NCBI GenBank assembly: GCA_003173865.1
Contig: PJMF01000012.1
Span: 8,908 to 72,907 of the forward strand
Direction: 5' to 3'
Length of the DNA: 64,000 nt
Source: Minisyncoccota bacterium
GTDB lineage: Bacteria > Patescibacteriota > Microgenomatia > UBA1400 > PJMF01
In this document: positions 1 to 27,554 of the stretch, one piece after another
How positions within the stretch are numbered: position 1 is the stretch's first letter
How the letters are laid out: every line of letters begins with the position of its first letter
Translations under genes and position numbers: made by a program
Notes under the pieces: generated by a model
Database searches by the model: none
What the model saw: only the letters and a program-made list of their open reading frames with translations
Told to the model about the DNA's origin: nothing

Positions 1-373
1 CGCAGTTCTCGGTCTTTCTTTCAAGCCACAAACAGACGATATGCGAGAAGCTCCGAGTGTCAAAGTCATTCCTTACTTAACATCACACGGCTCAACTGTG
101 ATGGGCTATGACCCAAAAGCGCTTCCAGTTGTTTCTTCCTTCATTCCTGAGCACCCACAAGCGAGTTACACCGACTCGATTCATCAGGCAGTAAAAAACG
201 CCGACGTAGTTATTGCCCTCATTGAGTGGCCAGAAATTATTGGTTTTGATTTTGCTCCTTTTGGCAACAGCAGTAACTCAACTTCAAAATGGTTTATTGA
301 TGCGCGCAATCAATTTGATAAACAAAAAGTACTGAGTTGGGGATATCAATATCTAGGAGTTGGCCGTTCATGA
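1..373 (+). CDS. UDP-glucose/GDP-mannose dehydrogenase family protein, C-terminal part (5' end lies outside the window)
   Basis: ORF running in from the window edge. C-terminal region resembles the UDP-glucose 6-dehydrogenase C-terminal domain. Stop TGA 371-373 overlaps the next start (ATGA). Confidence 0.55.
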   Translation, partial: AVLGLSFKPQTDDMREAPSVKVIPYLTSHGSTVMGYDPKALPVVSSFIPEHPQASYTDSIHQAVKNADVVIALIEWPEIIGFDFAPFGNSSNSTSKWFIDARNQFDKQKVLSWGYQYLGVGRS

Positions 374-1323
374 ATCTAGAAGCACCTATCTTGATTACAG
401 GCGGCACTGGTTTCGTTGGGTCTCACCTCCTAGAAAAATTAATTTCTTTGGGATACCACAACATTCATGTGACATCTTTTAACGGTGTCCCGCCTGAAAT
501 AGCAGCAATTATTCCCGCTAATCACGTTCATATGATTGATTTGAAGAATCACGAGCAGGTTAATCTGCTTATAAAAGAACTTAAACCTGAACACATTTAT
601 CATCTGGCTGCGTTTGCAGCAGTTGGCTCGAGTTTTGATCAATGCAAGATGGTTTTGGAAAATAACTCGGAAATTCAGTTGGCACTCCTTGAGGCAGTTC
701 GTGATCATGCGCACGAAGCCCGTATATTGGTGATCGGCAGTGCGATGGAGTATGACTTAATTGGGAATACACAACGAGTAATCAGCGAAACTCATCCGCT
801 TGGTCCCGTGAGTCCTTACGCCGTTTCCAAAGTGATTCAGGACCTGCTCGCATTGTCGTTCTTTTATTCCTATCGATTACAAATTGTGCGGGCTCGCCCG
901 TTTAATCATATTGGCGAACGCCAAACTACTGACTTTGCAATTCCCCATTTTGCACAACAAATTGTAGCCATTGAACGCGGTCAACAAACCGAAATTCATG
1001 TAGGAAATCTTGATGCGGTACGTGACTTCACTGACGTGAAGGATGTTGTGGAAGCGTATGTATTACTGATGGAAAAAGGAACTACGGGAGATGTCTACAA
1101 TATTGGCAGTGGCCGCGGATACACCATGCAACAAATGCTCGATACCATGTGTCATTTAGCCAAGACGCCCGTGAAAGTGATTACTGATCCAAATAAGGTT
1201 CGTCCTCTTGACGTCCCTGCAATTATTGCCGATAGTAGTAAGATCAGAAAGCTTGGCTGGCAACCCAAAATCTCGATTGAAGAAACAGTACAAAGAATTT
1301 TAAATGAGTGGCGTGCAAAATAG
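370..1323 (+). CDS. NAD-dependent epimerase/dehydratase (SDR family); likely GDP-4-keto-6-deoxy-D-mannose reductase (Rmd-like) or GDP-fucose synthase
   Basis: N-terminal Rossmann motif [12 protein letters not shown]. Sits directly upstream of gmd. ATG at 370 overlaps the preceding stop; the 337 start in the ORF track is a TTG. Confidence 0.7.
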
Positions 1324-1333
1324 AAAGGCTCCT

Positions 1334-2311
1334 ATGAAGAAAGCATTTATTACCGGTATTACAGGTCAAGACGGTTCGTACTTGGCTGAGTCTCTCTTAA
1401 GTAAAGGCTACAAAGTGTATGGTCTGACACGACGCACCAGTACGCAAAATTTCCAACGTATTGAACATATTATTCACCATGAAAATTTAGAACTTGTTTC
1501 TGGTGATTTACTTGACCAGCACTCCATTACCGTTGCTCTCAAGGAAATTCAACCTGACGAAGTGTATAACTTAGCCGCTCAATCATTTGTGAAAACAAGT
1601 TGGGATCAACCGGTTTTAACTGGTGAGTTTACGGCAATTGGTGTTACACGGATGTTAGAAGCAGTTCGTTTTGCTTGTCCAGAGGCGCGATTTTATCAAG
1701 CGAGTTCTTCGGAAATGTTTGGCAAAGTACAAGAAGTACCTCAAACAGAAAACACACCATTTTATCCTCGTTCCCCGTATGGCGTCGCGAAAGTGTATGG
1801 GCACTGGATCACAATCAATTATCGTGAATCTTTTAATATGTTTGCTGTATCAGGTATTTTATTTAATCATGAATCTCCCCGACGCGGACTTGAGTTTGTC
1901 ACTCGCAAAATTGCGAACGCAGTCGCTCGGATTAAACTTGGTAAACAACAATTTGTTGAGCTTGGCAATTTAGAAGCGAAACGCGACTGGGGCTTTGCCA
2001 AAGATTATGTCGAAGCAATGTGGTTAATGTTACAACAAGACCACGCAGACGACTTTGTCATTGCAACTGGCGAAACACACTCTGTGGGTGAGTTTTTGGA
2101 ATTAAGTTGTCAAGTTGCAGGAATTTCAGATTGGAGAAGTGTTTACCGACATAATCCAAAGTACGATCGCCCGGCTGAAGTCGATTTGCTTATTGGTGAT
2201 CCAAGTAAAGCAAAACAAAAATTAGGCTGGGAACCTTCTGTCACATTTGCAGAGCTAGTAAAAATCATGACTGAAGCAGAGCTCATTGAGGAAGCAAAAG
2301 ATCGAGATTAA
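1334..2311 (+). CDS. gmd: GDP-mannose 4,6-dehydratase
   Basis: [21 protein letters not shown]-terminus and overall Gmd-like sequence. ATG at 1334 has a GAAAGG Shine-Dalgarno and follows the upstream TAG stop. Confidence 0.9.
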
Positions 2312-2314
2312 TTC

Positions 2315-3451
2315 ATGAAGAAAGCAATTGTTATCATTCCGACATATAACGAGCGTGAAAACATCCAAAACGTGGTGCCGATTTTGTCTGATGTCTTTAA
2401 AAAAATTCCCCACTGGGAAATGGGCATCTTAGTCGTTGATGACAGCTCACCAGATGGCACAGCTGATGTTGTTCGTGAACTTCAACACAAATACAAAGAA
2501 CTTTTCTTGTTAGTTAATCCCAATAAAAGCGGACTAGGAGGAGCCTATTTGAAAGGAATGGCCGAAGCGTTCGGACCGCTCGGCGCTGAAGTTGTCTTTG
2601 AGTTTGATGCTGATCTCTCTCACGATCCCACGAAGATTCCGGCTTTTCTCGAAAAAATTGACGCTGGTTACGACATGGTGATTGGTTCGCGCTACATGAA
2701 AGGTGGCGGTATTCCGGATAACTGGGGACTCCATCGGAAGTTTTTGAGTGTGTTAGGAAATAATATTATCCGTTGTGTCTGGACAAACTTTAGTATTCAC
2801 GACTGGACAGGTGGCTATCGCGCATTTTCAAAAAAAGTATACGAGGCAATTTTGCCAGAAATGCAGAGAGAGATCTTTACTGGATATACATTTCAAATTG
2901 GTTTTTTACATAAAGCTGTACAGAAAAAATTTAAAATCGCAGAAGTTCCTTTTAAGTTTGTCGATCGAACAATTGGTCAATCCAAGCTGGGAGCTGATTA
3001 TATTAAAAATGCGCTGTTGTTTGTTTTTCATGCTCGATATAAAGAAATCGTTGATCATCAGATCTTTAAGTTTGCTGTAGTGGGTGGTATTGGCTTTATG
3101 GTCAACTTAATTTTTCTCGAGATTTTTCATCGCTTTTTTCACATTGAAGCTGGAAATGCCGCAGCGCTCGGAGCCGAAGTTGCCATCATCAGTAACTTTA
3201 TCATTAATAATTACTGGACTTTTGCCGCACACAAAGTCACCAGAGCAACGCAAATGATCTCAAAATTTGTGCAGTTTAATGTGGGTTCCCTGGGTGCCGT
3301 CATTATTCAAAAAATCGTCGTTGGATTAGGAACAAAGTATACTTCTGACGCACTTCGTCTCGAGTGGTTTGTGCTTGCTGTTTTGATCGGCATGGTCGTG
3401 AACTACTTCGTTTACTCACGTTTAATCTGGAAAACGACAACAAAAAAATGA
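2315..3451 (+). CDS. GT2 polyprenol-phosphate glycosyltransferase (Dpm1/Ppm1-like) with C-terminal GtrA-like membrane domain
   Basis: IIPTYNEREN and VVDDSSPDGT motifs typical of dolichol-phosphate mannose synthase-like GT2 enzymes. Hydrophobic C-terminal third resembles the GtrA family. Confidence 0.8.
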   Translation: MKKAIVIIPTYNERENIQNVVPILSDVFKKIPHWEMGILVVDDSSPDGTADVVRELQHKYKELFLLVNPNKSGLGGAYLKGMAEAFGPLGAEVVFEFDADLSHDPTKIPAFLEKIDAGYDMVIGSRYMKGGGIPDNWGLHRKFLSVLGNNIIRCVWTNFSIHDWTGGYRAFSKKVYEAILPEMQREIFTGYTFQIGFLHKAVQKKFKIAEVPFKFVDRTIGQSKLGADYIKNALLFVFHARYKEIVDHQIFKFAVVGGIGFMVNLIFLEIFHRFFHIEAGNAAALGAEVAIISNFIINNYWTFAAHKVTRATQMISKFVQFNVGSLGAVIIQKIVVGLGTKYTSDALRLEWFVLAVLIGMVVNYFVYSRLIWKTTTKK

Positions 3452-4944
3452 AACGATTTTCGCTCACTCAATGGATTGTGCTTGCCGCAATAATTGTTGG
3501 GAGTTTTTTTCGTTTATGGAACTTCCCTAATACACTGCAATTTCTCGGGGATCAAGGACGAGATGCTTTAGTTGCTTTACATATCTTTAAAGATCATCAC
3601 TTTGTGTTGATTGGTCCCGTAACGAGTACCGGCAATATGTACCTTGGTCCGTTGTACTATTACTTCATGGTTCCCTTTTTGTACTTGAGTTATCCCAGTC
3701 CTTTAGGTCCGGCCTATGCAATTGCGGCACTTTCAATCGCTACAATTGTGCTTATTTACTACTTAGGCAAAGAATTGATCGGTGAACGTTCAGCGGTGAT
3801 TGCGAGCGTGGCGTTTGCATGTTCAGCAGCTGCCGTGACGTATGCACGCTTTAGTTGGAATCCCAATCCGGCTCCATTTGTTTCTATAATCTTGATCTGG
3901 GCTTCTTATCGCGCGCTTGTTAAAAATCCCTGGTACTTCGTTCTCGTTTCTGTCTGCATCTCGATCTTAATTCAGTTGCACTATGTCACTTTACTTACTA
4001 TTCCAGCTGCAGGAATTATTTGGTTGATGACTCTTTGGAACATTGCGCATACTCCACAAAAAAAATGGAAAGTCTTTTTTTTCAGTACGATTATTTCGGT
4101 GCTTTTATTTTTGAGTTCATTGACACCGCTAGTACTCTTTGACTTGAGACATCAATTTTTAAATCTGCACGCATTGCAGTCATTTCTGTCCCAGAATCAA
4201 GGCAACTTAACACACACTACGAACTCACTGAAAATCATTCAGGTCGCAAAAGAAACCGATGGACGCAGTCGACAAGTTTTATTTGAGCCGTTTATTGGGA
4301 AACATTTTCACTTAAATCAAGTGCTTTTGGCGATTTTTTTGTTGAGTTTTATTATTTTGGCACTGCCGAACAAGCAGAAAACAAATACAGGGATTCAAGT
4401 TATCGCAGTTTATTTTTTTGTCAGCATTGCGGGATTGGCATTTTATGAAAGTACGATTTTTGATCACTATATCGCGTACTTATTTCCCATCACCATGATG
4501 GTGTACGGCATACTCATGGACCGTCTTCTGCAGCACAAATTTGGCGTTGGAGTGGCTGCCTGTATCAGTCTTGGCTACTTGGGGTGGAACATCACTCATA
4601 TGCCACTGCAAACAATTGGCTGGAGTATTTTTGACATGAAGCGCACGGCACAAACATTAATTGATCGTGTGAAACCGGGCGATAAATATAACCTCGTGTT
4701 ATTGACGAGTACGGGCGATATTGAAGGCCAGAACTATCGTTACTTTTTAGAAACAAGTGGAAAACCGCCGCTCCCAAAAGAACGTTGGGGCGAAACAGAA
4801 ACACTTTTTATTATTAACGAAGACGGTAAATTGAAAAAAGTCACTGATTCGCCAATTTATGAGATTGTGGTTTTTCCCAACAAAACGCCAGCTGAAGTGT
4901 ATACTATTTCTCACGGTCCTCAGGTAACTGTCTTAAAAAAGTAG
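3448..4944 (+). CDS. Polytopic membrane glycosyltransferase, GT-C fold (PMT/ArnT-like, GT39/GT83)
   Basis: About 11 predicted TM helices. ATG 3448 (MKRFSL) overlaps the preceding stop; the 3364 start in the ORF track lies inside the previous gene. Confidence 0.55.
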   Translation: MKRFSLTQWIVLAAIIVGSFFRLWNFPNTLQFLGDQGRDALVALHIFKDHHFVLIGPVTSTGNMYLGPLYYYFMVPFLYLSYPSPLGPAYAIAALSIATIVLIYYLGKELIGERSAVIASVAFACSAAAVTYARFSWNPNPAPFVSIILIWASYRALVKNPWYFVLVSVCISILIQLHYVTLLTIPAAGIIWLMTLWNIAHTPQKKWKVFFFSTIISVLLFLSSLTPLVLFDLRHQFLNLHALQSFLSQNQGNLTHTTNSLKIIQVAKETDGRSRQVLFEPFIGKHFHLNQVLLAIFLLSFIILALPNKQKTNTGIQVIAVYFFVSIAGLAFYESTIFDHYIAYLFPITMMVYGILMDRLLQHKFGVGVAACISLGYLGWNITHMPLQTIGWSIFDMKRTAQTLIDRVKPGDKYNLVLLTSTGDIEGQNYRYFLETSGKPPLPKERWGETETLFIINEDGKLKKVTDSPIYEIVVFPNKTPAEVYTISHGPQVTVLKK

Positions 4945-4956
4945 TTTTTAACTTTT

Positions 4957-5730
4957 ATGAATAAAATGCCTTTGACATCAGCACCATTTCTCTCCGTGGT
5001 CGTGCCGTCGTATAACGAGATGCATAACATCTCCCGTGGTGTGCTCGATCAAATGTTAGAGTATTTAAAAAAACAAAGTTTTGATTGGGAACTGATTTTG
5101 AGTGATGATGGATCGAGCGATGGGACCTTTGAAGTGCTCGAGGATTTTGCCAAAAAATCGAAACACATCGTGCTCCTCAAAAATATTCATGCGGGAAAAG
5201 GACCGACCGTTCAAGCTGGAATGTTAAAAGCAAAAGGCCAGTGGCGTCTCTTTACTGACTTTGATCAATCTACACCACTCAAAGAAGTTGAGTTATTACT
5301 TCCGTTCACTGACCAGTATGAAATCGTGATTGGTTCGCGCGAAATCTCAGGCGCACGCCGCCGCCGTGAACCGTTGCATCGTCATGTGATGGGCAAGGCG
5401 TTTAACATTTTAGTACAGTGTCTAGCTATTCCCGGAATCCAAGATACTCAATGTGGATTTAAACTTTTTTCAGGTAAAGCTACTGAAAAAGTTTTTCCAA
5501 AACTGTTTGTGTATGGGCGTCAACCCGAGCGCCAAGATGCGTTTACCGGTGCATTTGATGTTGAGGCGCTGTATATTGCCCGTAAATTTGGCTTTCACAT
5601 CAAAGAAGTTCCTATTTTTTGGCAACATAACGAAACCGATCGTGTAAGTCCAATTAAAGATTCTTTGCGGATGCTCAGAGATATCGTCAGAGTCAGATTA
5701 GTTGATTTGAGCGGAAAGTATAAGAGTTGA
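4957..5730 (+). CDS. GT2 glycosyltransferase (polyprenol-phosphate sugar synthase-like)
   Basis: VVVPSYNEMHNI and LSDDGSSDGT motifs. Soluble GT-A fold protein of about 257 aa. Confidence 0.8.
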   Translation: MNKMPLTSAPFLSVVVPSYNEMHNISRGVLDQMLEYLKKQSFDWELILSDDGSSDGTFEVLEDFAKKSKHIVLLKNIHAGKGPTVQAGMLKAKGQWRLFTDFDQSTPLKEVELLLPFTDQYEIVIGSREISGARRRREPLHRHVMGKAFNILVQCLAIPGIQDTQCGFKLFSGKATEKVFPKLFVYGRQPERQDAFTGAFDVEALYIARKFGFHIKEVPIFWQHNETDRVSPIKDSLRMLRDIVRVRLVDLSGKYKS

Positions 5731-6899
5731 TGAAAATCAATCAATTGAAGTTTGCTTTTCTTTGCTATTTTGTGGTTTTGATTTTTTACACCGTTTTTTC
5801 ATTTTCATTAACTGATCCAAATCTCGTTTTGCTTTCATGGGGACCATACTGGAACTTTCAACAGTTCATGTGGCATACTTTTTTTGAGAATCACGTGTTA
5901 TTAAGCTGGACATATGCAGCTCTTATCACAGCACTGTTCGGGGCGTATGCGTGGATCATCAAAGCGTCTTCAAACAGTACATTGTTGATGAACTGGAAGC
6001 TTGCGGGATGTTATTTTTTGCTTCTTCTCCCCCTCTTTTTTTCATACAATGCGCTTTCTTATGATGTGTTTAATTATATTTTTAATGCCAAAATGGTCTT
6101 GATTTATCATGCTAATCCTTATGTTCAAGTTGCTTTAGATTTTGCTCAAGATCCATGGGTACGCTTCATGCATAACACGCACACGACTGCTCCTTATGGA
6201 TATGGCTGGACTCTCTTTTCGCTGCTCCCGTTTGAACTAGGGTTTGGAAAGTTTGTGCCAACTTGGCTGATGTTTCGTTTCTTTAGTGTACTCAGTATTT
6301 TTTTACTGTATGTATGTATTAGCTTTGCAAAGAAAAAAGAATTTTTGGTTCGAGAGTTTGTCATTTTGTTCCTCAATCCGTTGTTTGTTCTCGAAGTGGT
6401 CAGCAATGCACATAACGATTTGTGGATGATGGTGCCTGCGCTCTATGCGGTTGCAATGGTATTTGACCACAAAAAAGGATCTCTAAAAAAATGTCTCATC
6501 GCAACTGCGTTAATGATTTTTTCGATCTCAATGAAGTTTGCATCTTTGCTTTTACTGCCTTTAATCGGAGCGAGTTTTCATCACAAAGTGAAACAATACT
6601 GGCCAGAAATTGCTGCCCTTCTCATGTTTGTTCTTCTGCTCACCAACCGCTCACAACAATTTCATCCTTGGTATTTGACGTGGGTACTTGTGTGGTTTCC
6701 ATTTATAAAAAACAAATTACTTAAACAAAGTATTTTAGTGCTTTCCGTGAGTTCGCTCTTTCGTTACGTACCATGGATGTGGAATGGTTACTTTTCTGAC
6801 CAAATTATTTTGCAACAAAAAATGATTACGTGGATTCCCCTTGTTCTCTTTTTGATAGTAATGAGTGTAAATAGCTTATGGAAAAAATTATTGAAATGA
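5730..6899 (+). CDS. Polytopic membrane protein, possible GT-C glycosyltransferase
   Basis: Ten or more hydrophobic helices. ATG 5730 overlaps stop TGA 5728-5730. No motif confidently assigned. Confidence 0.4.
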   Translation: MKINQLKFAFLCYFVVLIFYTVFSFSLTDPNLVLLSWGPYWNFQQFMWHTFFENHVLLSWTYAALITALFGAYAWIIKASSNSTLLMNWKLAGCYFLLLLPLFFSYNALSYDVFNYIFNAKMVLIYHANPYVQVALDFAQDPWVRFMHNTHTTAPYGYGWTLFSLLPFELGFGKFVPTWLMFRFFSVLSIFLLYVCISFAKKKEFLVREFVILFLNPLFVLEVVSNAHNDLWMMVPALYAVAMVFDHKKGSLKKCLIATALMIFSISMKFASLLLLPLIGASFHHKVKQYWPEIAALLMFVLLLTNRSQQFHPWYLTWVLVWFPFIKNKLLKQSILVLSVSSLFRYVPWMWNGYFSDQIILQQKMITWIPLVLFLIVMSVNSLWKKLLK

Positions 6900-8440
6900 A
6901 AAAAAGAAATTTTTTACTTCCAGCAACACTTGCTCTTTTTTACCTAGCAACTCATTTGTTAGGCTTGTTGAAGCTACCTGTTTTTGCAGATGAGTCAATT
7001 TATATTCGTTGGGCTCAATTAATTACAGATGACTGGAAACAGTATCTTTTTTTTCCTTTAAATGACGGCAAGACGCCCTTATTTATTTGGACATTGGTCC
7101 CTTTTCAACAGTTTTTTGCGTATCCATTACTCACCGCACGCTTGGTTTCAGTGGTGGTTGGTTTAGTGCAAGTATTTGTCATTGGTCTCATTATCAAAAA
7201 CTTGGGCGGTCGTTCAAAAACCCAGTGGCTAGGCATGCTCTGGACGACGATTTTACCTTTTTGGTACTTCGCCCATCGTATCGCACTCATGGATGGCATG
7301 TTGACACTGTGGATTTCACTTTTTGTTCTTGGTGTCATTAAAATCACACAACAAAGAAAAATCACATTGAATTGGATTTTTTTTAGCGGAGTTTTCTTAG
7401 GACTTGGACTGTGGACAAAACTGCCCACTTTATTTGCGGTGCCGATCGTCTTTGTCTGGCCATTGAGACAAAAAGAAGTTCGTTTAAAGTTTTACTTCCA
7501 TGCAGTTATTCCCCAAATTATTGCAATTTGTATTGGAATGTTTTTGTTTGCGACGCTACGAATAACTCCATCTTTTGGTCAGTTATTTCATCGTGGAAAT
7601 GATTTTACGTATCCCATCGCAGATGTTTTACTTCATGGCAAATGGATGACCACACTGGGAAATATTCCTACATATTTAACTTTTTTTGTAGCCTACTTGA
7701 CACCAGCCATTTTAATCTTAAGTTTTGCGGGTCTTTTTTCTCGACAATTTCGACGTACTACTGTCTGTTTGTTACTCTCTGCGGCTCTTTTTTGTTTCCC
7801 AATCGTGTTGTTTGGGAAGGTCGTTTATCCTCGCTACTTATTTCCGGCGTCGATATTTTTCACTTCAGCGGCAGCCTTGGCTTTTCAGGGGTGGTATGAC
7901 CGATACTTTAGTGCTCGTACCAATCAAAATATTCAGTCCAAGTTCATCGTTGGCTTAATTTTAGCGTTACTGCTCGCACAAACGGTAGTTTCGTCACTCC
8001 AATTTATGACATTCGCGGCCACAGATCCAAATTCTTTACCCCTAGTAGCTGCCGACCGAGAGCAGTACCTCGAAGAGTGGTCGTCAGGTCATGGCATCCT
8101 TGAAACTGTCGCCTTCATTCAGCAACAAGCACAAAACCACAGCATTGCCGTCGCTACAGAAGGTCGGTTTGGCACGTTGCCCGACGGTTTACTTCTCTAT
8201 TTTCATCACCAAGACGTTCATAACATTTATATCGAAGGAACTGGCGAGTATGCCCCAGTCAAAGATATTCCCGATTTTTTTACTCAGCGAGCCAAAAGCT
8301 TTCAGCAAAGCATTTTAGTTGTGAACTCACATCGCATGGGTATTACTTTGCCGAAGCAAAATCTTCTTGCAGAGTACTGCCGTCCTGATCACGCTCCTTG
8401 CTTGCAAATTTGGGACATTACTTCACTCGTCAAAAAATAA
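6878..8440 (+). CDS. GT-C membrane glycosyltransferase (ArnT/PMT-like)
   Basis: N-terminal polytopic membrane domain followed by a soluble C-terminal domain, the usual PMT/ArnT architecture. Alternative ATG at 6896 gives an ATGA overlap with the previous stop. Confidence 0.55.
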   Translation: MEKIIEMKKRNFLLPATLALFYLATHLLGLLKLPVFADESIYIRWAQLITDDWKQYLFFPLNDGKTPLFIWTLVPFQQFFAYPLLTARLVSVVVGLVQVFVIGLIIKNLGGRSKTQWLGMLWTTILPFWYFAHRIALMDGMLTLWISLFVLGVIKITQQRKITLNWIFFSGVFLGLGLWTKLPTLFAVPIVFVWPLRQKEVRLKFYFHAVIPQIIAICIGMFLFATLRITPSFGQLFHRGNDFTYPIADVLLHGKWMTTLGNIPTYLTFFVAYLTPAILILSFAGLFSRQFRRTTVCLLLSAALFCFPIVLFGKVVYPRYLFPASIFFTSAAALAFQGWYDRYFSARTNQNIQSKFIVGLILALLLAQTVVSSLQFMTFAATDPNSLPLVAADREQYLEEWSSGHGILETVAFIQQQAQNHSIAVATEGRFGTLPDGLLLYFHHQDVHNIYIEGTGEYAPVKDIPDFFTQRAKSFQQSILVVNSHRMGITLPKQNLLAEYCRPDHAPCLQIWDITSLVKK

Positions 8441-8441
8441 A

Positions 8442-9107
8442 CTAGCCTCGCATGACATAGCCGTATCCCCTCACTGTCTGCAACATTTTTCGTCGTGAAC
8501 CCATGATGATCCGAATTCTTCTAATATAGACATCAACAGTCGAGTACGTAGGAATCTCGCCATCTTCCCAGATGTGATCGATCAACATCTCCCGAGTAAC
8601 AATCATGTTTTTATGCTTAATCAGAAAAACCAAAATTTCGAACTCTCTTTTACGTAAATGCACAACTCGTCTGCCGAACTTACAAATGCCTAAACGGGGA
8701 AAGATCGCAATATCGCCGCAAGGCAATGTATCCACCTGGATATGTTTAACTTTCATCAATAATTTTTCAACTTTTAGCGAAAACTCGTCCATCGAAAATG
8801 GTTTTGGCAGATAATCATCGGCTCCTCTGCGTAATCCTTCGATCCGATCACTTAAAGAAGTCCTTTCACTAATCATTAAAATCGGCATCTGTGATTGATT
8901 GAGCTGCAAGTAACGAATAATTTCTAAACCGTCTCCATCTGGAAGTCCTCGATCTAAAATCAAGAGATCAAATTTTTGTTTTGTTAAATAGATGAAAGCT
9001 TGCGAAAGGGTCGCCGCGCTTTTAGTGCGATATGCTCGGTCAACTAGCGACGAGTGAATCAATCGCGAAAGATCAAAGTTGTCATCAACGATCAATACTT
9101 TTTGCAT
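8442..9107 (-). CDS. OmpR-family response regulator (receiver plus winged-helix DNA-binding domain), orphan
   Basis: MQKVLIVDD receiver N-terminus with an LILDRGLPDGDG phospho-acceptor region and a C-terminal OmpR-type wHTH (TVRGYGY). The first ATG in frame is at 9107 (reverse CAT 9105-9107). Confidence 0.85.
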   Translation of the reverse strand: MQKVLIVDDNFDLSRLIHSSLVDRAYRTKSAATLSQAFIYLTKQKFDLLILDRGLPDGDGLEIIRYLQLNQSQMPILMISERTSLSDRIEGLRRGADDYLPKPFSMDEFSLKVEKLLMKVKHIQVDTLPCGDIAIFPRLGICKFGRRVVHLRKREFEILVFLIKHKNMIVTREMLIDHIWEDGEIPTYSTVDVYIRRIRIIMGSRRKMLQTVRGYGYVMRG

Positions 9108-9297: not shown

Positions 9298-9382
9298 CGT
9301 AGACATTTTGTATTCAACTTCTTGCCTGGAGAATTTATAAAATTGAGAACGTCGGGTTTTGCTTTTTGATATACTTCATCAT

Positions 9383-10243
9383 ATGGACTCTTCGTCGCTC
9401 AAAAACTTTATTCAAAATATTACTGAAAAAATGCTTGAAGCAGGCGAAATTGCAGAAAAGTTTCAAGGCAAGGTTGCAAATATAAAAAAAGAAGTCGATC
9501 TCGATAATAATGCTCCTCAAAGAATTAAAGATCGAAATCAAGCAAAAACCGAGATTGATGAAAAAGTTCAAGAAATGCTTTTAGAGTGTGTGAAAGACAC
9601 TCTTGGGATCAACAATATTAGAATTGATGCCGAAGAAGATACAGCATTGAAGCAACTTTTTCCAAATGAAGCAGCTCAAGTAACCATCGTGATTGATCCT
9701 ATTGATGGTACCTTAGAGTATCTGAATGGAAGTGATAGGTATTCGATTAACGTTGGGGTCGTTTCTCATGGAGAAATGCTTGCCGCTTTAATTTATTTTC
9801 CGAAACTGAAAAAACTTTATTTCTTGGATAATCAAAAAACTTCCTACGAAGTAGCCTATACTTCTAGTCTAGAAGTTAAAGATAAAAAAGTTCTAAAAGG
9901 AAATGAACAACCGCAAAGAAATAAAGTATATGTAAATAATCGGGTGGCCACAGATTTAGTAGACAACTTAGAAAAAGCAGATTTTTCAGTAATTCAGGAT
10001 GATGGAGAAGTATCTTGGCCAGATGCGCTTTTAAAATGCATTTCTGGTGAATACTTTGCGAGTATTTTTCATAGTCCTCAAACAAGGGATGTTTTACTTG
10101 GAGCCTTAATTGAAAACTTAGAAAATGGATGGAAAGTGGACTGGGAAGGAAATAAAATTACTTGGCCAAATGGAGGGAGAATTCCTAGAGTGATTTTTGG
10201 TACAGGAGCTCTTCCGCGAGAAATTTTTGAGAGTTTAGAGTAA
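9383..10243 (+). CDS. Inositol monophosphatase / CysQ-like phosphatase family protein
   Basis: DPIDGT motif and overall length fit the IMPase family. ATG at 9383; the 9359 start in the ORF track is a TTG. Confidence 0.65.
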   Translation: MDSSSLKNFIQNITEKMLEAGEIAEKFQGKVANIKKEVDLDNNAPQRIKDRNQAKTEIDEKVQEMLLECVKDTLGINNIRIDAEEDTALKQLFPNEAAQVTIVIDPIDGTLEYLNGSDRYSINVGVVSHGEMLAALIYFPKLKKLYFLDNQKTSYEVAYTSSLEVKDKKVLKGNEQPQRNKVYVNNRVATDLVDNLEKADFSVIQDDGEVSWPDALLKCISGEYFASIFHSPQTRDVLLGALIENLENGWKVDWEGNKITWPNGGRIPRVIFGTGALPREIFESLE

Positions 10244-10297
10244 AACAGGTCCTGACATGGTCCACTAGTGCCACAATAGATATTGTATTATTTTCTT

Positions 10298-11167
10298 ATG
10301 ACACAAACTGATGGACAAGAAACGAGTTTTGATCCTTTTGCAGGAAAATATCAATACGTGCCAAAAACTAATTATTCACAAGTGAGGTTCCATCACGAAT
10401 ATATAGAAGGAATGAAGTACGTGGGGCAAAAATATATTAACGAGATTTTGCCCGCTATTCATCCCAAAAAAAACGGCAATTATCTTGATATCGGTGGTGG
10501 GTCGGGAGAAGTTGCGGAAGCTTTAGAGCAAATGTATGGGGGTCATACGGTAGTGACTGATATCTCTCCAGCAGGATTAACAATGTTTACCGATAAAAAC
10601 AAGGCTGTATCAGATGCAATACACCAACCTTTTGCTGATGGTTCATTCAATTTAGTTCATCTCAAGGATGTGCTCGTGCATATTGAATCTCATAAAGATC
10701 TATTAAAAGAAATTTTTCGTTTACTGAAAGAAGGAGGTATTGCTGTAGTTACAACGGAAGAACTCAATGAAGGCAAGGCGACGCTATATTATGGATCTGA
10801 GCCAAATGAACGCGCTTCTATAAAAATTGATACACTCCAAGAATACAATGAGATTCTAGAAAGATTAAAAAATGGAGAAAAAGACTCAGAGGTCCTTACA
10901 GCCCATTCAAAAAAAATAAATAAATCAATCCCTCCAGATTGGTCAGCAATAAGCATATCGCCTCCGTTCTTTAAGATTAATTTAGAAGAATTGTTGCAAA
11001 TAGTTACGGAGCTTGGTTTTGAAGTAAAAGATATTAAAGACTATAACTCATCAGGAGATACTGATTGGTATAGAGAGTTAAATCGAAAAGTTGTTATTCT
11101 CCGTAAACCACTAGCATCAGTTAAAGAAAAACAGAAACCTTTCCTTCTAAGAAGCTTATTTAAGTAA
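10298..11167 (+). CDS. Class I SAM-dependent methyltransferase
   Basis: Motif I YLDIGGGSGEVAE and post-I acidic residue VVTDIS. ATG at 10298. Confidence 0.7.
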   Translation: MTQTDGQETSFDPFAGKYQYVPKTNYSQVRFHHEYIEGMKYVGQKYINEILPAIHPKKNGNYLDIGGGSGEVAEALEQMYGGHTVVTDISPAGLTMFTDKNKAVSDAIHQPFADGSFNLVHLKDVLVHIESHKDLLKEIFRLLKEGGIAVVTTEELNEGKATLYYGSEPNERASIKIDTLQEYNEILERLKNGEKDSEVLTAHSKKINKSIPPDWSAISISPPFFKINLEELLQIVTELGFEVKDIKDYNSSGDTDWYRELNRKVVILRKPLASVKEKQKPFLLRSLFK

Positions 11168-11578
11168 TTAATTAGTATTGTTTAACACAATACGTTCGAA
11201 CACTGTCTATCACTACCATCGTGATCAATGTTTGTGATAAACTAAATGATAATATGTCAAACCCTTTAGAAAATGAAAGACTAGATCGTCCAGGTATGGG
11301 AGGGAGAAAAACAATCTTGTACGAAACTGATCTCGATCTTATTCCTGGAGATAAAGTCGTTGTGACAGAACATAAAAATGATTTAGATAAAAGAATTGAG
11401 AAACCAAGAAGAAAATTAGGAGTGCCACTAGATGACGGAAAACCAAACAACAATGATCAGAAGTAATTAAGATAAGAGAAGGAATTTTCCTTTACTTCAG
11501 GTAGTTAAAACCATTGCACAACATGACTTCAGTTCTTCATCTTCAAAGTAGTGCTCGAAGAGTAATGAAGAGTTTGAT

Positions 11579-12313
11579 ATGATCACAAACATGAATACTG
11601 ATGCTCGTGAACCCACAATGAGTGTATTTCGAGCTGGCAAAGGAAACACTCACGCTGTAGATGTTCCCATCAACGATCTTCAGTTTATTGGTGAAGGAGC
11701 AGTGGGAACTGTACATCGAGTTACCATTTCCCCTAGAAGAGAAGGTTTAGAACCACTTTATTTTGCTTACAAAAAACTAGACAGCTCAGATCCTAACCGT
11801 ATACAAACAGCCTACACCATTCATCAGAAACTTCTTGAGTTACCCCACGGGAGACAGTTCACCGTGCAAACATTCCGTTTTACTGATGAAGGTCTTTTTA
11901 TGACAGATCTATCAGAAGGAGGAAAAAATTTGGTGGTGTCTTCTAATGATCTTGAGAAGGATGTTCTTTTAGAGGCAAGGCAAATCAATAAAAAAAATCC
12001 CAACTTTATCTCAAACTTCGTACAAAAAGAAGACCTTATCGCAAATGAAGAAGAATGGGAGGCTGAGTTTGAAAAACGCGCAGACGTTATAGCCCGCGAA
12101 ACTGCAGAAGCCGGAATTAAATTACAAGGAGATAGTATCTTTTTTGTTATTTATCCTGATGGTGAGTATAGGCTTTTTGTTGTTGATCTTGATAACGTCA
12201 AGTTATACGAAAACTATCCTTCCGACAACCTATATCAAATAAATTTGCGCGAGATTAAAGATTTAAAGCCTCATCTTTTAGGGTTGTGGTTGAGCCTGGA
12301 AAAATTACTCTAA
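11579..12313 (+). CDS. Atypical protein-kinase-like (PKL) fold protein, Kdo/RIO-like
   Basis: Glycine-rich loop IGEGAVGTVHRV followed by an FAYKKL lysine. Candidate catalytic and metal-binding segments LQGDSIFF and FVVDLDNV. No canonical HRD or DFG motif. Confidence 0.4.
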   Translation: MITNMNTDAREPTMSVFRAGKGNTHAVDVPINDLQFIGEGAVGTVHRVTISPRREGLEPLYFAYKKLDSSDPNRIQTAYTIHQKLLELPHGRQFTVQTFRFTDEGLFMTDLSEGGKNLVVSSNDLEKDVLLEARQINKKNPNFISNFVQKEDLIANEEEWEAEFEKRADVIARETAEAGIKLQGDSIFFVIYPDGEYRLFVVDLDNVKLYENYPSDNLYQINLREIKDLKPHLLGLWLSLEKLL

Positions 12314-12329
12314 ATAAATTCCCCACTTC

Positions 12330-13433
12330 ATGAAAAAAAAGTACTTTCTTATTTTAGTCATTCTGATCTTCTTAGCATGTACTTGGCTGGTCACAAGTGG
12401 CACACTTCTCGCACTCATGGCGAACGGAGCTGATTATGTACTTCGACCCTTGATTGGTGAAAAAAATACAATTAAACTCGAGTCAATCGTGTTTCAGCTT
12501 TCTGACAAAGCTCATCAACTCCACTCACAAAAAATTTCTTCTGCCAAGTCACTCCTCAAAAATACATCAAGCTCTTCTCCCCGTTTGAGAACAGACCTTG
12601 ATTTGAGCCCTGTTGCAAATCCAACAAAATTACCTTCTTTTGAGGGTGAAGGAATCTGGGAGCCCATCCTTTTTGATCAATTTCCCAACGAAGAAGTCAT
12701 GGCTCAAACGGTGATTCACGTTGATAACGATCGTTCGTTTGCGTATGTCGCTTTAGTCAAAATCGATACTCGTAAAATCAAGATTGGTGCAGTTGCGGGA
12801 ACACGTCAACCCGGCGGCCCGATCGGCAATCCGGGAGAAGGAAAAGTTCCAGATGACATTAAACAAAGTGGGAAGTTACTGGCAGCGTTTGATGGAGGAT
12901 TTCAGTATCGTGACGGAGCATATGGCATGATTGTGGACCAAAAAACGTATGTGCCGCTGCGACCAAATTTAGCCACTTTATTTATTGATGAAAATGGTAA
13001 ACCGTCGATGTCTACATATCACGGCGAACCACTTTCCCCACAAACGGCAACAGTTCGTCAAAACGGGGTTCTCTTGGTCGAAAACGGCCAAATTACCCCA
13101 TTTACTGAACCCGGCGCAGACAACTGGGGTCGCACAGTAACCAACTCAATATATACTTGGAGATCTGCTGTAGGTATCACCAGAGATGGCAGTTTACTTT
13201 TTGCAGTCGGTCCCTCATTGCGACCAGATACATTAGCACTAGCCCTGAAAACAGCAGGTGCGGTTACTGCAATGCAGTTAGACGTCAACCCCTATTGGGT
13301 ACGATTTGCTATTTTTCATCCTGCGGAAAATAATACGTATCAATCAACGCCACTCTTGAATGATTTACAGAATGGCGGCTATAGTTATCTTCATGGTTAC
13401 CAAAAAGATTTTTTCTATTTATACGCAAAGTGA
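12330..13433 (+). CDS. Secreted phosphodiester glycosidase family protein (NAGPA/DUF2233-like)
   Basis: N-terminal signal/TM segment. C-terminal region (RSAVGITRDGSLLFAV and TAGAVTAMQLDVNPYW) resembles the phosphodiester glycosidase domain. Confidence 0.55.
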   Translation: MKKKYFLILVILIFLACTWLVTSGTLLALMANGADYVLRPLIGEKNTIKLESIVFQLSDKAHQLHSQKISSAKSLLKNTSSSSPRLRTDLDLSPVANPTKLPSFEGEGIWEPILFDQFPNEEVMAQTVIHVDNDRSFAYVALVKIDTRKIKIGAVAGTRQPGGPIGNPGEGKVPDDIKQSGKLLAAFDGGFQYRDGAYGMIVDQKTYVPLRPNLATLFIDENGKPSMSTYHGEPLSPQTATVRQNGVLLVENGQITPFTEPGADNWGRTVTNSIYTWRSAVGITRDGSLLFAVGPSLRPDTLALALKTAGAVTAMQLDVNPYWVRFAIFHPAENNTYQSTPLLNDLQNGGYSYLHGYQKDFFYLYAK

Positions 13434-13512
13434 GAACGGACGATTGCAATCTTAAACATCTGAGGTAAACTGAGAATTTGCTGAAAAGGCAGGCTGCTAA
13501 CAAGTTTTTAAT

Positions 13513-14346
13513 ATGCGTTACTTAATCATTAATGCTGACGACTTTGGCATGAGCCAAGAGATTAACGAAGGCATCAAGCGGGGCATCGAAGCAGGTGTGA
13601 TCACCAGCGTTTCGGTCATGGTGAACATGCCATTTGCCGATGACGCAATCAAGTTTTTAAAAAAACATCCTGAAGTCTCTGTTGGATTACATTTTAATAT
13701 CACCGAAGGATCCCCAACTCTCAAACCAAAACAAATTACGACTTTGCTGAGGGAAGATAATAGTTATTTTCACTGGAGTTCTTTAGTTATTAAATTGCTG
13801 CTCGGTCAATGTTCTTTAGACGAAATTAATCTGGTGCTCATCAGTCAATATCGGAAGTTGAAGAGTACCGGCCTGAAAATTACACATTTAGATAGTCATC
13901 ATCACATTCATCTATTTCCCACCATTTTTAAAGGATTTGTTGACTTTGCGCATCGGGAAAAAGTAGCTGCACTGCGGTCGCGCCGATTTAATCTCTGGAA
14001 CTTAACGAGCAGTCTACGTAAAGGAATCACTTCCAAACAATGTTTAATTTTATCGATGTGTCTTTTTAATAATTTCTTTACTAAGAACTCGCTTGACCTC
14101 TCCGGCGGAAATAGCATCTACGACTTAAACTGGGATCCTAATCTCACTGAAGCAAAGTTTCTCCGCATTATCCAAAACTTCGGCCCTGGTGTAACGGAAA
14201 TCATTTGTCATCCTGCCATCGCAAGTAAAGATGGCAACGAAAAGTTTTTACGACCCAGAGAACGTGGGCTTAACTTACTGCTTAGTCCAGCCTTTTTAGC
14301 AGAGTTGAAAAAAAATAAAATCAAGTTAATTTCTCGAAACGCCTAG
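13513..14346 (+). CDS. YdjC/ChbG-family carbohydrate deacetylase
   Basis: N-terminus LIINADDFGMSQEINEGI is the hallmark of the YdjC family. Confidence 0.8.
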   Translation: MRYLIINADDFGMSQEINEGIKRGIEAGVITSVSVMVNMPFADDAIKFLKKHPEVSVGLHFNITEGSPTLKPKQITTLLREDNSYFHWSSLVIKLLLGQCSLDEINLVLISQYRKLKSTGLKITHLDSHHHIHLFPTIFKGFVDFAHREKVAALRSRRFNLWNLTSSLRKGITSKQCLILSMCLFNNFFTKNSLDLSGGNSIYDLNWDPNLTEAKFLRIIQNFGPGVTEIICHPAIASKDGNEKFLRPRERGLNLLLSPAFLAELKKNKIKLISRNA

Positions 14347-14349
14347 ACT

Positions 14350-15876
14350 CTATACAAATCCTGGAAAGTAATCTTTTTTAATCCGCTGACGCTGTACCCC
14401 CATACCTAATAAAACACTTTCGTACGCTTCAACCATTGCGTGCGGACCTGAAAGATAAAAAAATCGCTCAGCAAAATCGGGAACTTCTTCTTTAATCATG
14501 GCGTCATTAATTCTCCCCACTTTTCCTTTCCAATCTTTTGGAACAGTTTCCAAATCAGTTAAGGTATAAACAACTTTAATGCCCAGTTGGGTTTCAGCTT
14601 GAGAAAATACGTCACTATACGCAATCTCTTTTGCTTCTTTATTCGCATAAAAAAGAATGATTGGCCGCGGTTCGTTTTTATCAAGTAGGTGCTTCAACAT
14701 GCTTCGAAATGGTGTTACTCCGATACCACCAGCGATAAAGACGCATTTTTGCTGCGGATTTTCGGGCAGTGTAAAGTCTCCCGAAAGTTGAGCCCCAACG
14801 ATCAGAGTGTTTTCGTTCATTTGCGACATTGCCTTTTTATATGAACTGCCTTTAGGATAAAACTTGACTCCTAAGTGAATCATGTCTTCACTGGGTGAAG
14901 ATGCAATCGTGAAGTAACGGCGATTTCCTCGATCGTCAGAACGCCGGTGAGGCAACGTCCACTCCATGTATTGTCCCGGATTAAAAACAAAATTTTTAGG
15001 TCTCTCAAATTGAAAATCCACTACGTCATCCCCATACTTCACCTGATTTTTAAGCTGCAACATTAATTTAAATTTGGGACTCACAAAATAAGAAAAAATA
15101 TTTCCGATTCCCAGCGCAACTTCCGGCGTTGAGTAAAATTGGGCGATATGAATTTGCGGCGCGAACAAAAAACCAACCAATGCTCCGTAGATCATCTGCA
15201 GTTTTTGAGTGGGAGGTGTCGTCAACGGCTCTGTTAACATGACAAAGGCCAAGAAAAAAAGTGGCGAGTCAAGTGCAACTGTTTTTACGGTTGTCATGAC
15301 GTTTCCACCACTCAGCAAAGTTAAACCAAATATAGTAGCTATCGCGAAAACAAAAAAAGCTGCCACCAACCGAGCGCGACGCATTTTTCGTATTAACAGT
15401 GCTCCTCCAATAATCACAAATGGAGCAAGTAACGCTGTTCCTATCCACCAGCTTGCCGCAACATTGAGCCCAAAAGAAATCAACACCACTCCCACCACGA
15501 CGGGATTAAAAAAATGCTTTTTATGGAAAGCAAAAATATACTTAGAGGCCATCGTCAAGATAGAGGCCCAAAAAAGCACCGGCACTTCAGATATATTTTT
15601 GGCGGGATCAAGAATTAAAACGAGTATCAGCGCCGAAATAAACACCGACTCCACGTTAGTGGGCGCCGAAAAAATCATCGCGAAAATCTCATTTACCAGC
15701 CAGCACACCACTACAATAAATTCAGCTGACAGCAGCAACGAAAGAGCTGAAAAAGGCATAAGGCCAAAAAGAGCAAAAATAAAGGCGATGATCACGAGGA
15801 CAATTAAGTAATACAAAACCAAACGATACATCGTAATGAAGTTCAAAAAGTTATCGATTTTTTCCAGTACGTTCAT
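14350..15876 (-). CDS. Membrane-bound FAD/NAD(P)-binding oxidoreductase (N-terminal polytopic domain fused to FNR-like module)
   Basis: About six or more N-terminal TM helices. C-terminal FNR-type motifs RRYFTIASSP (FAD binding) and GGIGVTPF (NAD(P) binding). ATG 15876 overlaps the stop of the upstream gene (ATGA). Confidence 0.65.
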   Translation of the reverse strand: MNVLEKIDNFLNFITMYRLVLYYLIVLVIIAFIFALFGLMPFSALSLLLSAEFIVVVCWLVNEIFAMIFSAPTNVESVFISALILVLILDPAKNISEVPVLFWASILTMASKYIFAFHKKHFFNPVVVGVVLISFGLNVAASWWIGTALLAPFVIIGGALLIRKMRRARLVAAFFVFAIATIFGLTLLSGGNVMTTVKTVALDSPLFFLAFVMLTEPLTTPPTQKLQMIYGALVGFLFAPQIHIAQFYSTPEVALGIGNIFSYFVSPKFKLMLQLKNQVKYGDDVVDFQFERPKNFVFNPGQYMEWTLPHRRSDDRGNRRYFTIASSPSEDMIHLGVKFYPKGSSYKKAMSQMNENTLIVGAQLSGDFTLPENPQQKCVFIAGGIGVTPFRSMLKHLLDKNEPRPIILFYANKEAKEIAYSDVFSQAETQLGIKVVYTLTDLETVPKDWKGKVGRINDAMIKEEVPDFAERFFYLSGPHAMVEAYESVLLGMGVQRQRIKKDYFPGFV

Positions 15877-25075: not shown

Positions 25076-25909
25076 ATGATAAGATGTCCTAGTATTGTGA
25101 CACACTCTTCTCAATTTCGCTTTCACATTTTTTCTGCTGAAAAAGTTGCGGTCGAAGCTGCTCACTCCTTGGCGAAAATATTAACAGACTCGTTGTCTCA
25201 AAATAAATCCGTACTGCTATTACTCTCCGGCGGATCGGCAATTAAGATGTATGGATATATCTTTCAATTTTTAGAAACAGGAACTCATTTACAGCACTTG
25301 AACCTTGGCTTAGCTGACGAGCGTTTTGGCCCGTTTGGTCACCCAGATAGTAATGAGCAACAGTTACGTGATGCTGGCGTTATCAAAGCGTTTGAAGATC
25401 GAGGAGCTCACTTTTTTGGTATGTTAACTCAAGATCACCTTAATGAAAAAGAAACTGCTAAACGAGCTGCGACAATTTATCGCCGCCTTTTTGAAGAGGC
25501 AGATACAATCATTCTTTCGGCAGGAATTGGTGAAGACGGTCATACGCTCGGCTGGTTACCAACCCAAACACGTAAAGAATTTATGCACCTTTACGATTCA
25601 CCTGCAGACGTTACTTTTTATACACTCGATCCTCGCAACTCACCGAATCCGTTTCGCTCACGCTTGACACTTACACTTACAGCAGCCAAAAAAGCACATC
25701 GTATGTTTGTTTTTGCTCAGGGAAAAAATAAACGTATGGCTCTGCAGAAGTTAACACAAGAAGTAGGTCCAGTTCACACTATTCCTGCTCGAGCGCTCTT
25801 CCAAAGCCTGCATCCACTCGAAATTTGGACAGATCAGGTGGTAACAGGTAAAAAAATAAAAAACGTCGTCCCAACTCCTTCTTCAGATCTGAATGAAATA
25901 CTTCCGTGA
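25076..25909 (+). CDS. pgl: 6-phosphogluconolactonase (GlcN6P deaminase/6PGL family)
   Basis: LLLSGGS motif and 6PGL-family similarity. Divergent from zwf with start codons abutting (catatg). The start is uncertain: 25058 or a later non-ATG start are possible. Confidence 0.65.
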   Translation: MIRCPSIVTHSSQFRFHIFSAEKVAVEAAHSLAKILTDSLSQNKSVLLLLSGGSAIKMYGYIFQFLETGTHLQHLNLGLADERFGPFGHPDSNEQQLRDAGVIKAFEDRGAHFFGMLTQDHLNEKETAKRAATIYRRLFEEADTIILSAGIGEDGHTLGWLPTQTRKEFMHLYDSPADVTFYTLDPRNSPNPFRSRLTLTLTAAKKAHRMFVFAQGKNKRMALQKLTQEVGPVHTIPARALFQSLHPLEIWTDQVVTGKKIKNVVPTPSSDLNEILP

Positions 25910-27469: not shown

Positions 27470-27554
27470 AAGAAAGAATCCCTCGGGCAGACTCATCACT
27501 TATGACACACAAAGATTAAAAATTCATTAAATAATATCCGCAGAATTTGCGTTA

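Follow-up and report, generated by a model that had tools for sequence, protein, structure and literature searches.

Introduction

The actinobacterial Ppm1/Pmt/MptA/MptB/MptC/PimE system is built on a family 2 glycosyltransferase (GT2) which makes a lipid-phosphate mannose donor for several glycosyltransferases of the GT-C class on the outer face of the membrane, including PMT-class and MptA/B-family enzymes. In archaea and eukaryotes, the dolichyl-phosphate mannose synthase (DPMS, or Dpm1) and Alg5 feed lumenal GT-Cs, and the three-component systems of bacteria (GtrA/GtrB/Gtr-type, CsbB/GtcA/YfhO and ArnC/ArnT) combine a GT2 synthase, a GtrA-family element and a GT-C. RgtE with RgtA-D of Rhizobium forms a three-component system for lipid-linked galacturonate, and the Arn and Rgt systems are a precedent for Ugd-derived uronic or pentose sugars that travel on a lipid carrier. 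In this study, an operon of eight genes related to these systems was investigated at positions 1-8440 (+ strand) of a 64,000-nucleotide stretch of contig PJMF01000012.1 from a Minisyncoccota bacterium, the whole of which is hereafter called the window. We observed that the operon very probably encodes an extracytoplasmic glycosylation line that works on polyprenyl-phosphate-monosaccharide donors, and the initial annotation of this DNA, which had read it as a lipid-linked extracytoplasmic glycosylation system, is supported at the level of gene families. The kind of system is known, and this version of the operon is undescribed: literature searches on mannosyltransferases, GT-Cs, dolichyl-phosphate and rhamnose in Patescibacteria, the candidate phyla radiation and Microgenomates did not return a description of it. 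Its distinctive character is the presence of two synthases, three GT-Cs and three sugar-nucleotide enzymes in one conserved operon of a single-membrane lineage with reduced genomes.

Compared with the actinobacterial system, the genes examined here stand in one operon with Ugd, Gmd, Rmd and a second, Alg5-like synthase, and the mannose-type synthase is of the archaeal type III with a GtrA-like domain fused to it. At 389 aa, the MptA/B-like protein is much shorter, its conserved Asp lies after the third helix as it does in MptB, and neither phosphatidylinositol mannoside (PIM) or GT4 anchor genes in the window scans nor any match to PMT_4TMC were found. With the archaeal and eukaryotic pathway the operon shares a Dpm1-type and an Alg5-type synthase side by side, and the Pyrococcus furiosus DPMS is the best solved relative of gene 4, in which its catalytic residues are all kept; unlike that pathway, the host is a bacterium, the carrier is presumably of the undecaprenyl type, no oligosaccharyltransferase or ALG-type enzymes were identified here, and the Alg5-like protein has no predicted anchor, although eukaryotic Alg5 has one. 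ArnC and GtrB are among the nearest solved relatives of both GT2s, and a GT2 synthase, a GtrA-family element and a GT-C are all present as in the three-component systems, but two synthases and three GT-Cs occur here together with Gmd and Rmd, in a single-membrane host without lipopolysaccharide (LPS), and the two GT2s score far under the ArnC, PgfS and PpgS equivalog cut-offs. The GDP-D-rhamnose pathways of the Pseudomonas aeruginosa common polysaccharide antigen and the Aneurinibacillus S-layer glycan likewise pair Gmd with an Rmd-like reductase, and the closest solved Rmds are the ones from these two systems. There, cytoplasmic GT4-type rhamnosyltransferases use GDP-D-rhamnose, whereas no GT4-type rhamnosyltransferase was found in this operon or in the scanned window.

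Organization of the operon

The eight genes lie on one strand, tightly packed, and are as follows.

2..373, + strand: gene 1, 3' end of the UDP-glucose 6-dehydrogenase gene Ugd, clipped by the window start (PF03720, 79 bits)
370..1323, + strand: gene 2, Rmd-like short-chain dehydrogenase/reductase (GDP-4-keto-6-deoxy-D-mannose reductase; relatives 2pk3 and 6x3b)
1334..2311, + strand: gene 3, GDP-mannose 4,6-dehydratase, Gmd (TIGR01472)
2315..3451, + strand: gene 4, type-III DPMS-like polyprenyl-phosphate mannose synthase, a GT2 with a four-helix GtrA/DPMS domain (PF00535 and PF04138)
3448..4944, + strand: gene 5, ArnT/PMT_2-class GT-C whose C-terminus forms a soluble outer domain (AlphaFold2 model and Foldseek)
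4957..5730, + strand: gene 6, soluble GT2, Alg5-like candidate polyprenyl-phosphate glucosyl (or glucuronosyl) synthase (PF00535)
5730..6899, + strand: gene 7, MptA_B_family protein with about 10 transmembrane helices, candidate polyprenyl-phosphate-sugar-dependent elongating transferase (PF26314 label)
6878..8440, + strand: gene 8, GT-C of the PMT/ArnT class, with an alternative start at 6896 (PF02366)

As read from the sequence, every junction in this run is either a gap of at most 12 nt or an overlap of stop and start. ATGA overlaps join Ugd to the reductase at 370 and the first GT2 to the PMT_2-class gene at 3448, gene 8 gains an ATGA overlap at 6896 when its second ATG is used, a TGATG junction stands at 5728-5732, and the remaining intergenic gaps are of 3, 10 and 12 nt. 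The guanine-plus-cytosine fraction of the operon (0.39-0.43) is the same as in the remainder of the window, and consensus promoter and terminator matches around the operon were not more numerous than in shuffled sequence. The single operon with ATGA couplings proposed in the initial annotation thus holds, both by these junctions and by the conserved collinearity described below. Its open reading frames (ORFs) at 3448-4944, 5730-6899 and 6878-8440 are present on the + strand with the coordinates it gave, and the other genes that it named were found too; its gene list had overlooked Ugd (2-373), which belongs to the same operon, and the reductase precedes Gmd rather than following it.

Sugar-nucleotide enzymes

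The clipped gene 1 contributes its last 123 codons, which match the UDP-binding domain of UDP-glucose/GDP-mannose dehydrogenases. Ugd is the first gene of the operon in relatives, and a full-length orthologue (L002:3319-4605) scored 416 bits against TIGR03026 (cut-off 190) and came nearest to the TuaD-type UDP-glucose 6-dehydrogenase, with 409 bits, under the cut-off of that equivalog. A GDP-mannose dehydrogenase was considered for gene 1 and ruled out, as the orthologue is nearest to UDP-glucose 6-dehydrogenases.

Gene 3 was confirmed as the Gmd that had been called initially, since it passes the TIGR01472 equivalog cut-off (441.4 bits against 415, over profile positions 1-339 of 342), and it also matches PF16363 with 460 bits. 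The start at ATG 1334 gives 325 aa, in agreement with the orthologues (324-325 aa), and an alternative ATG lies at 1304. Gene 2, a paralogue of gene 3 with 31% identity, has two Rmds as its top solved relatives, namely 2pk3 from Aneurinibacillus (E 6.9e-61) and 6x3b from Pseudomonas (E 1.2e-37), followed in third rank by a putative epimerase (5e-32). The GxxGxxG motif and the S-Y-K triad of gene 2 (G11, G14, G17, S124, Y150 and K154) are kept by all or nearly all of 70 orthologues, and against the NCBIfam equivalogs GalE, RmlB, Fcl and Gmd the protein remained far under all cut-offs. Because gene 2 is closest to Rmd, the predicted product of Gmd and gene 2 is GDP-D-rhamnose or its C4 epimer, 6-deoxy-D-talose, and not fucose; homology alone cannot separate D-rhamnose-forming from 6-deoxy-D-talose-forming reductases. 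Fucose was ruled out, with Fcl at 67 bits against a cut-off of 500 and the Rmd structures ranked on top. Of the Rmd/Fcl-like reductase with D-rhamnose or fucose as its product that had been proposed for this gene, the Rmd and D-rhamnose side therefore stands and the Fcl and fucose side does not. The UDP-glucose 4-epimerase match, named in advance as the outcome that would speak against this assignment, did not occur, because the Rmd structures rank first and GalE, RmlB and Fcl lie far below their cut-offs.

Predicted lipid-sugar synthases

Gene 4 consists of a PF00535 domain (residues 6-179) and a PF04138 domain (GtrA_DPMS_TM, residues 252-372), and it aligns with the Pyrococcus furiosus DPMS (PfDPMS, 5mlz) at E 1.3e-39 over residues 3-362, which covers both the catalytic and the membrane domains. 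In PfDPMS, roles have been assigned to the guanine-binding Asp39, the DAD motif, His94, the acceptor-phosphate residues Arg117, Arg131 and Ser135, and Arg202 and Lys208 of the A-loop (PMC5526996). The equivalents in gene 4 of D39, D89, D91, H94, R117, R131, S135, R202 and K208 show no or almost no variation among 74 orthologues, and the differences from PfDPMS are the replacement of Gln93 by Ser, of Phe177 by Tyr and of Lys178 by Thr or Ala.

Gene 6 (257 aa) carries PF00535 only and shares 30% identity with gene 4 over 217 residues. Its equivalents of R117 and R131 are invariant in 83 orthologues, while that of S135 is Gly, and its nearest solved relatives (DPMS, ArnC and GtrB) are all polyprenyl-phosphate glycosyltransferases. 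Close homologues (57-78% identity) have been named dolichyl-phosphate beta-glucosyltransferase by both the Joint Genome Institute and NCBI. The two Dpm1-like GT2 synthases of the initial annotation, one of them fused to a GtrA-like domain, are borne out by PF00535 in both proteins and the GtrA domain in gene 4, and at the level of annotation the pair can be refined to one Dpm1-type (gene 4) and one Alg5-type (gene 6) synthase.

Candidate membrane glycosyltransferases

Work on MtPMT locates the catalytic Asp of GT-C enzymes in the first outer loop, with a DE or DxD acidic motif ahead of the first juxtamembrane helix (PMC12331936). Gene 8 matches PF02366 (PMT) with 42.8 bits against a cut-off of 22.7, and the profile of its family, made from 60 homologues, found ArnT first (5ezm, E 1.2e-11), followed by the fungal Pmt4 and Pmt2, both near 1e-9, and Pmt1; 9i5k was matched at 1e-9 and 6p25_B at 2.3e-9. 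Its invariant residues are D38-E39, D63-G64-K65 and R319-Y320, of which D38-E39 stands directly past the first hydrophobic segment (13-31) in 60/60 homologues, and the invariant K65 and Y320 align onto K85 and Y345 of ArnT, which we take to be phosphate-binding residues. For gene 5, most orthologues carry a precomputed PF13231 (PMT_2) label, and the AlphaFold2 model (predicted local distance difference test, pLDDT, 91.8) gave 23 Foldseek matches at E <=0.001, all of them GT-C, and about 30 GT-C chains overall, including AglB, ArnT (5f15, TM-score 0.60), STT3, ALG12, ALG9, Pmt4, AftB and ALG3. D35 and D39 of gene 5 occur in 55/55 homologues, in the loop 24-85 after the first transmembrane helix, and the N-terminus before that helix bears Lys and Arg residues.

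Genes 5 and 8 are homologous to each other (hhalign probability 95.7%), and both end in a soluble alpha/beta domain. PMT_4TMC, which is the C-terminal part of PMTs in the MtPMT work (PMC12331936), gave nothing in either gene even at E up to 10, and because of this we filed them under the broad ArnT/PMT class, which spans Pfam PMT and PMT_2 and CAZy GT39 and GT83, and not under GT39 proper. Single-sequence searches of the PDB with genes 5, 7 and 8 gave no match, nor did the gene 5 family profile.

Gene 7 (389 aa, about 10 helices) carries the PF26314 MptA_B_family label, precomputed on the identical protein and on 119/120 homologues, and in five loci this label stands unmarked (E <=1e-5). Its AlphaFold2 model has a pLDDT of 90.5. 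The invariant residues on the predicted outer loops are D112, Y116, D141, E222, H228, N229 and D230, and among them D112 and Y116 are found in 63/63 homologues, where helix 112-124 begins within the loop 105-175 after the third transmembrane helix; from the distribution of Lys and Arg, this second outer loop is predicted on the outside. PimE holds a pair D58/Y62 (PMC12041525), and the best conserved loop of MptB lies between helices 3 and 4 (PMC2440535), with D136 of MsMptB adjoining the acceptor (PMC13223929). D112-x3-Y116 of gene 7 reproduces the PimE pair and fits the location of D136 in MptB, and gene 7 is probably a GT-C enzyme. D29, in the first loop, was ruled out as the catalytic residue of gene 7, being Ala in 13/63 homologues.

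For the three GT-C-like proteins of the initial annotation, which had named an acidic residue in the first outer loop as a check, the outcome differs between the genes. The class assignment holds for genes 5 and 8, and gene 7 is placed there by its precomputed label and motif and not by a Foldseek fold match. The first-loop residue is present in gene 5 (D35/D39) and gene 8 (D38-E39), and it fails for gene 7 because of the variable D29.

Conservation among relatives

A scan of one genome per species for relatives of gene 7 returned 123 genomes, and the best 80 of the 123 are metagenome-assembled genomes (MAGs) of Pacebacteria, Woesebacteria, Microgenomates or the 'Patescibacteria group'. Dozens of the operon-bearing species-representative MAGs are titled 'uncultured Pseudomonadales bacterium', which looks like a systematic mislabelling of titles. 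Carriers of the operon include the near-complete contigs BOKR01000001.1 and DASPLQ010000012.1.

When nine window proteins were compared by tblastn with 84 independent loci, the Ugd, Rmd, Gmd, DPMS-like, PMT_2-like, Alg5-like and MptA/B-like genes were collinear and compact in 67/69 of the loci that had enough upstream sequence. Two loci depart from this order: in locus L035 (7983-9959), tblastn did not detect the PMT_2-like gene in its usual place, with the DPMS-like gene on one side and the Alg5-like gene on the other, and in locus L033 it did not detect Ugd. The PMT-like gene follows directly downstream in 61/74 loci and is inverted nearby in 6. The median identity was highest for Gmd (81%), followed by the Alg5-like protein (63%), which is thereby the second best conserved protein of the operon, and it amounted to 44-53% for the others.

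No other glycosyltransferases adjoin the operon in five annotated relatives, and the ORFs of at least 150 aa in the rest of the window include no further glycosyltransferases or GDP-mannose supply genes, their content being housekeeping.

Discussion

With reference to the families and conserved residues, a possible course of events can be outlined. In the cytoplasm, Ugd would form UDP-glucuronate, and Gmd with the Rmd-like reductase would convert GDP-mannose to GDP-D-rhamnose (or 6-deoxy-D-talose). At the inner membrane face, the two GT2s would load single sugars onto polyprenyl phosphate, the DPMS-type gene 4 taking a GDP-manno-hexose and the Alg5-like gene 6 a UDP-gluco-hexose, and the fused GtrA-like domain of gene 4 may help the product across the membrane; for PfDPMS, a 2026 paper proposes the membrane domain as a possible flipper of its own product (PMC12992685). 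On the outer face, the three GT-Cs would transfer the lipid-carried sugars, where the pair of genes 5 and 8 would most likely act early, attaching a sugar to an acceptor that is a protein or is anchored in the membrane, at a position that is not a sugar or is the first sugar, and the MptA/B-like gene 7 would most likely elongate sugar on sugar. The coupling of nucleotide-sugar formation to the lipid-linked steps is what the conserved operon suggests.

A more specific version of this glycosylation line, which we hold to be tentative and on the whole unlikely, is that the DPMS-like enzyme makes polyprenyl-phosphate-D-rhamnose and the Alg5-like enzyme polyprenyl-phosphate-glucuronate, from which the three GT-Cs would build a D-rhamnose/uronic-acid glycan wholly outside the cell. 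The tailored nucleotide sugars may enter via the lipid synthases because the operon has no other Leloir glycosyltransferase. Literature searches for a lipid-phosphate-D-rhamnose donor (GDP-D-rhamnose with polyprenyl) found no report.

Several results count against the extracytoplasmic line or its details. GDP-D-rhamnose and UDP-glucuronate are tied to the lipid-linked steps by operon membership alone. A 6-deoxy signature was sought in gene 4 by comparison with the contacts of PfDPMS, where Lys178 touches the O4 and O6 hydroxyls of mannose (PMC5526996); K178 was the sole differing contact, its equivalent being Thr in 69/74 and Ala in 5/74 orthologues, which is uninterpretable, and no residue of gene 4 was found that would discriminate a GDP-mannose from a GDP-D-rhamnose donor. 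The hydropathy scan of gene 6 gave zero hydrophobic segments that could serve as a membrane anchor, and its Alg5-like identity is that of a candidate, by annotation only. The PMT_2 score of gene 5 (PF13231, 25.0 bits) is about 1 bit below the cut-off of 26.1. For gene 7, our own Pfam search gave no hit, Foldseek with its model against solved structures gave no GT-C (best E 0.97), its profile found nothing significant among the PDB sequences, and hhalign gave 2% against the gene 5 family and 26% against the gene 8 family, the latter alignment pairing the invariant K269 with the invariant K181 of gene 8, as a hint only.

The foremost matter to be weighed is whether the sugar-nucleotide genes and the transferase genes serve one pathway. 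It is quite possible, though we lean somewhat the other way, that they are two modules that share only a promoter, with Ugd, Rmd and Gmd feeding cytoplasmic Leloir enzymes encoded elsewhere, for instance for a D-rhamnose/uronic-acid wall polymer, and the lipid module handling ordinary mannose and glucose. The DPMS-like protein indeed keeps every mannose-synthase residue listed above and lacks an obvious 6-deoxy adaptation, the homologues of gene 6 bear the names of glucose transferases, polyprenyl-phosphate mannose is the donor of MptA/B enzymes (PMC2440535), and 64 kb are in view of a genome of about 1.2-1.4 Mb, in which other glycosyltransferases may be encoded elsewhere; nevertheless, none was detected in the scanned ORFs of the window or beside the operon in the five annotated relatives, and the sugar-nucleotide genes are joined to the transferase genes by overlaps and keep the same order in 67/69 genomes. 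Another alternative is an actinobacterial-style pair of pathways, in which PMT-like protein O-mannosylation stands next to an MptA/B-like lipomannan-like lipoglycan, possibly on a glucuronosyl-diacylglycerol anchor made via Ugd. We regard this as rather unlikely, since the profile of gene 8 is no closer to Pmt enzymes than to ArnT, the PMT_4TMC match is missing in genes 5 and 8, the window scans found no GT4-type lipid-anchor glycosyltransferase or PIM gene, and gene 7, with 389 aa and about 10 helices, falls short of the 15 spans predicted in MptB (PMC2440535). Such a pair would nevertheless agree with the PF02366 match and invariant DE motif of gene 8, with the MptA_B_family label of gene 7, with the position of Ugd at the head of the operon, and with the finding that the MptB of Corynebacterium glutamicum elongates both Ac1PIM2 and the glucuronic-acid lipid Man1GlcAGroAc2 (PMC2440535).

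Two further explanations were considered. The resemblance to ArnT, which is the best match of the gene 8 profile (E 1.2e-11) and has the best TM-score with the gene 5 model, could point to a charge or permeability modification of a membrane lipid under the adjacent two-component system, similar to the PmrA-controlled modification of lipid A. Ugd is also the first enzyme of the 4-amino-4-deoxy-L-arabinose pathway, and an OmpR-family regulator is a conserved neighbour of the operon, yet there are no homologues of ArnA, ArnB or ArnD, the GT2s are far under the ArnC cut-off, the MptA/B-like enzyme and Gmd/Rmd would be left unexplained, and Patescibacteria have been described as single-membrane bacteria that lack LPS (PMC11809585), all of which makes this the least credible explanation and, in our judgment, a highly improbable one. 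The operon may alternatively add side-chain sugars, as in Gram-positive three-component decoration, to a polymer produced elsewhere, either teichoic-acid-like or a wall polysaccharide, for instance an L-rhamnan, for which a GT2 synthase, a GtrA-like domain and a GT-C are all at hand, dTDP-L-rhamnose genes stand just upstream in some relatives, and rhamnose wall polysaccharides have been proposed in the description of Patescibacterium (PMC11809585). This too appears unlikely to us, because a trmD on the opposite strand separates those Rml genes from the operon and other relatives have none upstream, a simple one-sugar decoration would call for fewer enzymes than two synthases and three GT-Cs, and no polymer-synthesis or export genes adjoin the operon.

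The largest contigs among relatives put the genomes of Microgenomates-type Patescibacteria at about 1.2-1.4 Mb, and the biosynthetic capacity of these bacteria is small. The 8.4 kb operon has nevertheless been retained by about 70 species-level genomes of these ultrasmall bacteria, with unchanged gene order and intact catalytic residues, and its product is therefore probably central to the envelope. Given their presumed reliance on other cells, a conserved glycan, lipoglycan or glycoprotein at the surface could plausibly govern attachment, phage sensitivity or envelope integrity. Moreover, the operon offers a compact, expressible test of whether a DPMS-type enzyme loads a 6-deoxymannose onto a lipid carrier, and of the role of a minimal MptA/B-like enzyme outside Actinobacteria; should the donors be ordinary mannose and glucose, it would be a tidy and unsurprising relative of the actinobacterial system.

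Neighbouring genes

Convergent with gene 8 is a gene for a response regulator, beyond which a tRNA-Gln is found; the regions with a kinase and regulator in two relatives are given with it.

8442..9107, - strand: OmpR-family response regulator, convergent with gene 8 (PF00072 and PF00486)
12896-14307 of locus L021: kinase/regulator region
12980-14369 of locus L043: kinase/regulator region

A homologue of the response regulator lies at most 4.5 kb downstream in 47/61 loci, and the regulator at 8442-9107 is a possible regulator of the operon and not an established member of the pathway. In many relatives, a kinase of about 240 aa without an obvious membrane segment (HATPase_c where annotated) stands between the PMT gene and the regulator, and this soluble histidine kinase is missing beside the regulator in the window.

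Domains of the dTDP-L-rhamnose pathway (RmlB/C/D-type) occur just upstream of the operon in some relatives (137-2595 in L002 and 110-2576 in L006), on the far side of the opposite-strand trmD. Further downstream in the window, positions 9359-14346 (+) hold a sugar-related run consisting of an inositol-monophosphatase family protein, an S-adenosylmethionine (SAM) methyltransferase, an unknown 244-aa protein, a NAGPA phosphodiester glycosidase and YdjC, and this run does not adjoin the operon in the five annotated relatives. An 897-aa ORF at 48584-51277 (+) has zero Pfam hits. In the region 44474-45022 and 43705-44451 (-), the NadA ORF covers only profile positions 133-295 of 295, which may reflect a truncated or split gene or a wrongly placed start, and the ORF adjoining it there has no Pfam hit. 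A second pair of histidine kinase and response regulator genes is located in the window at 25837-27499 (-).

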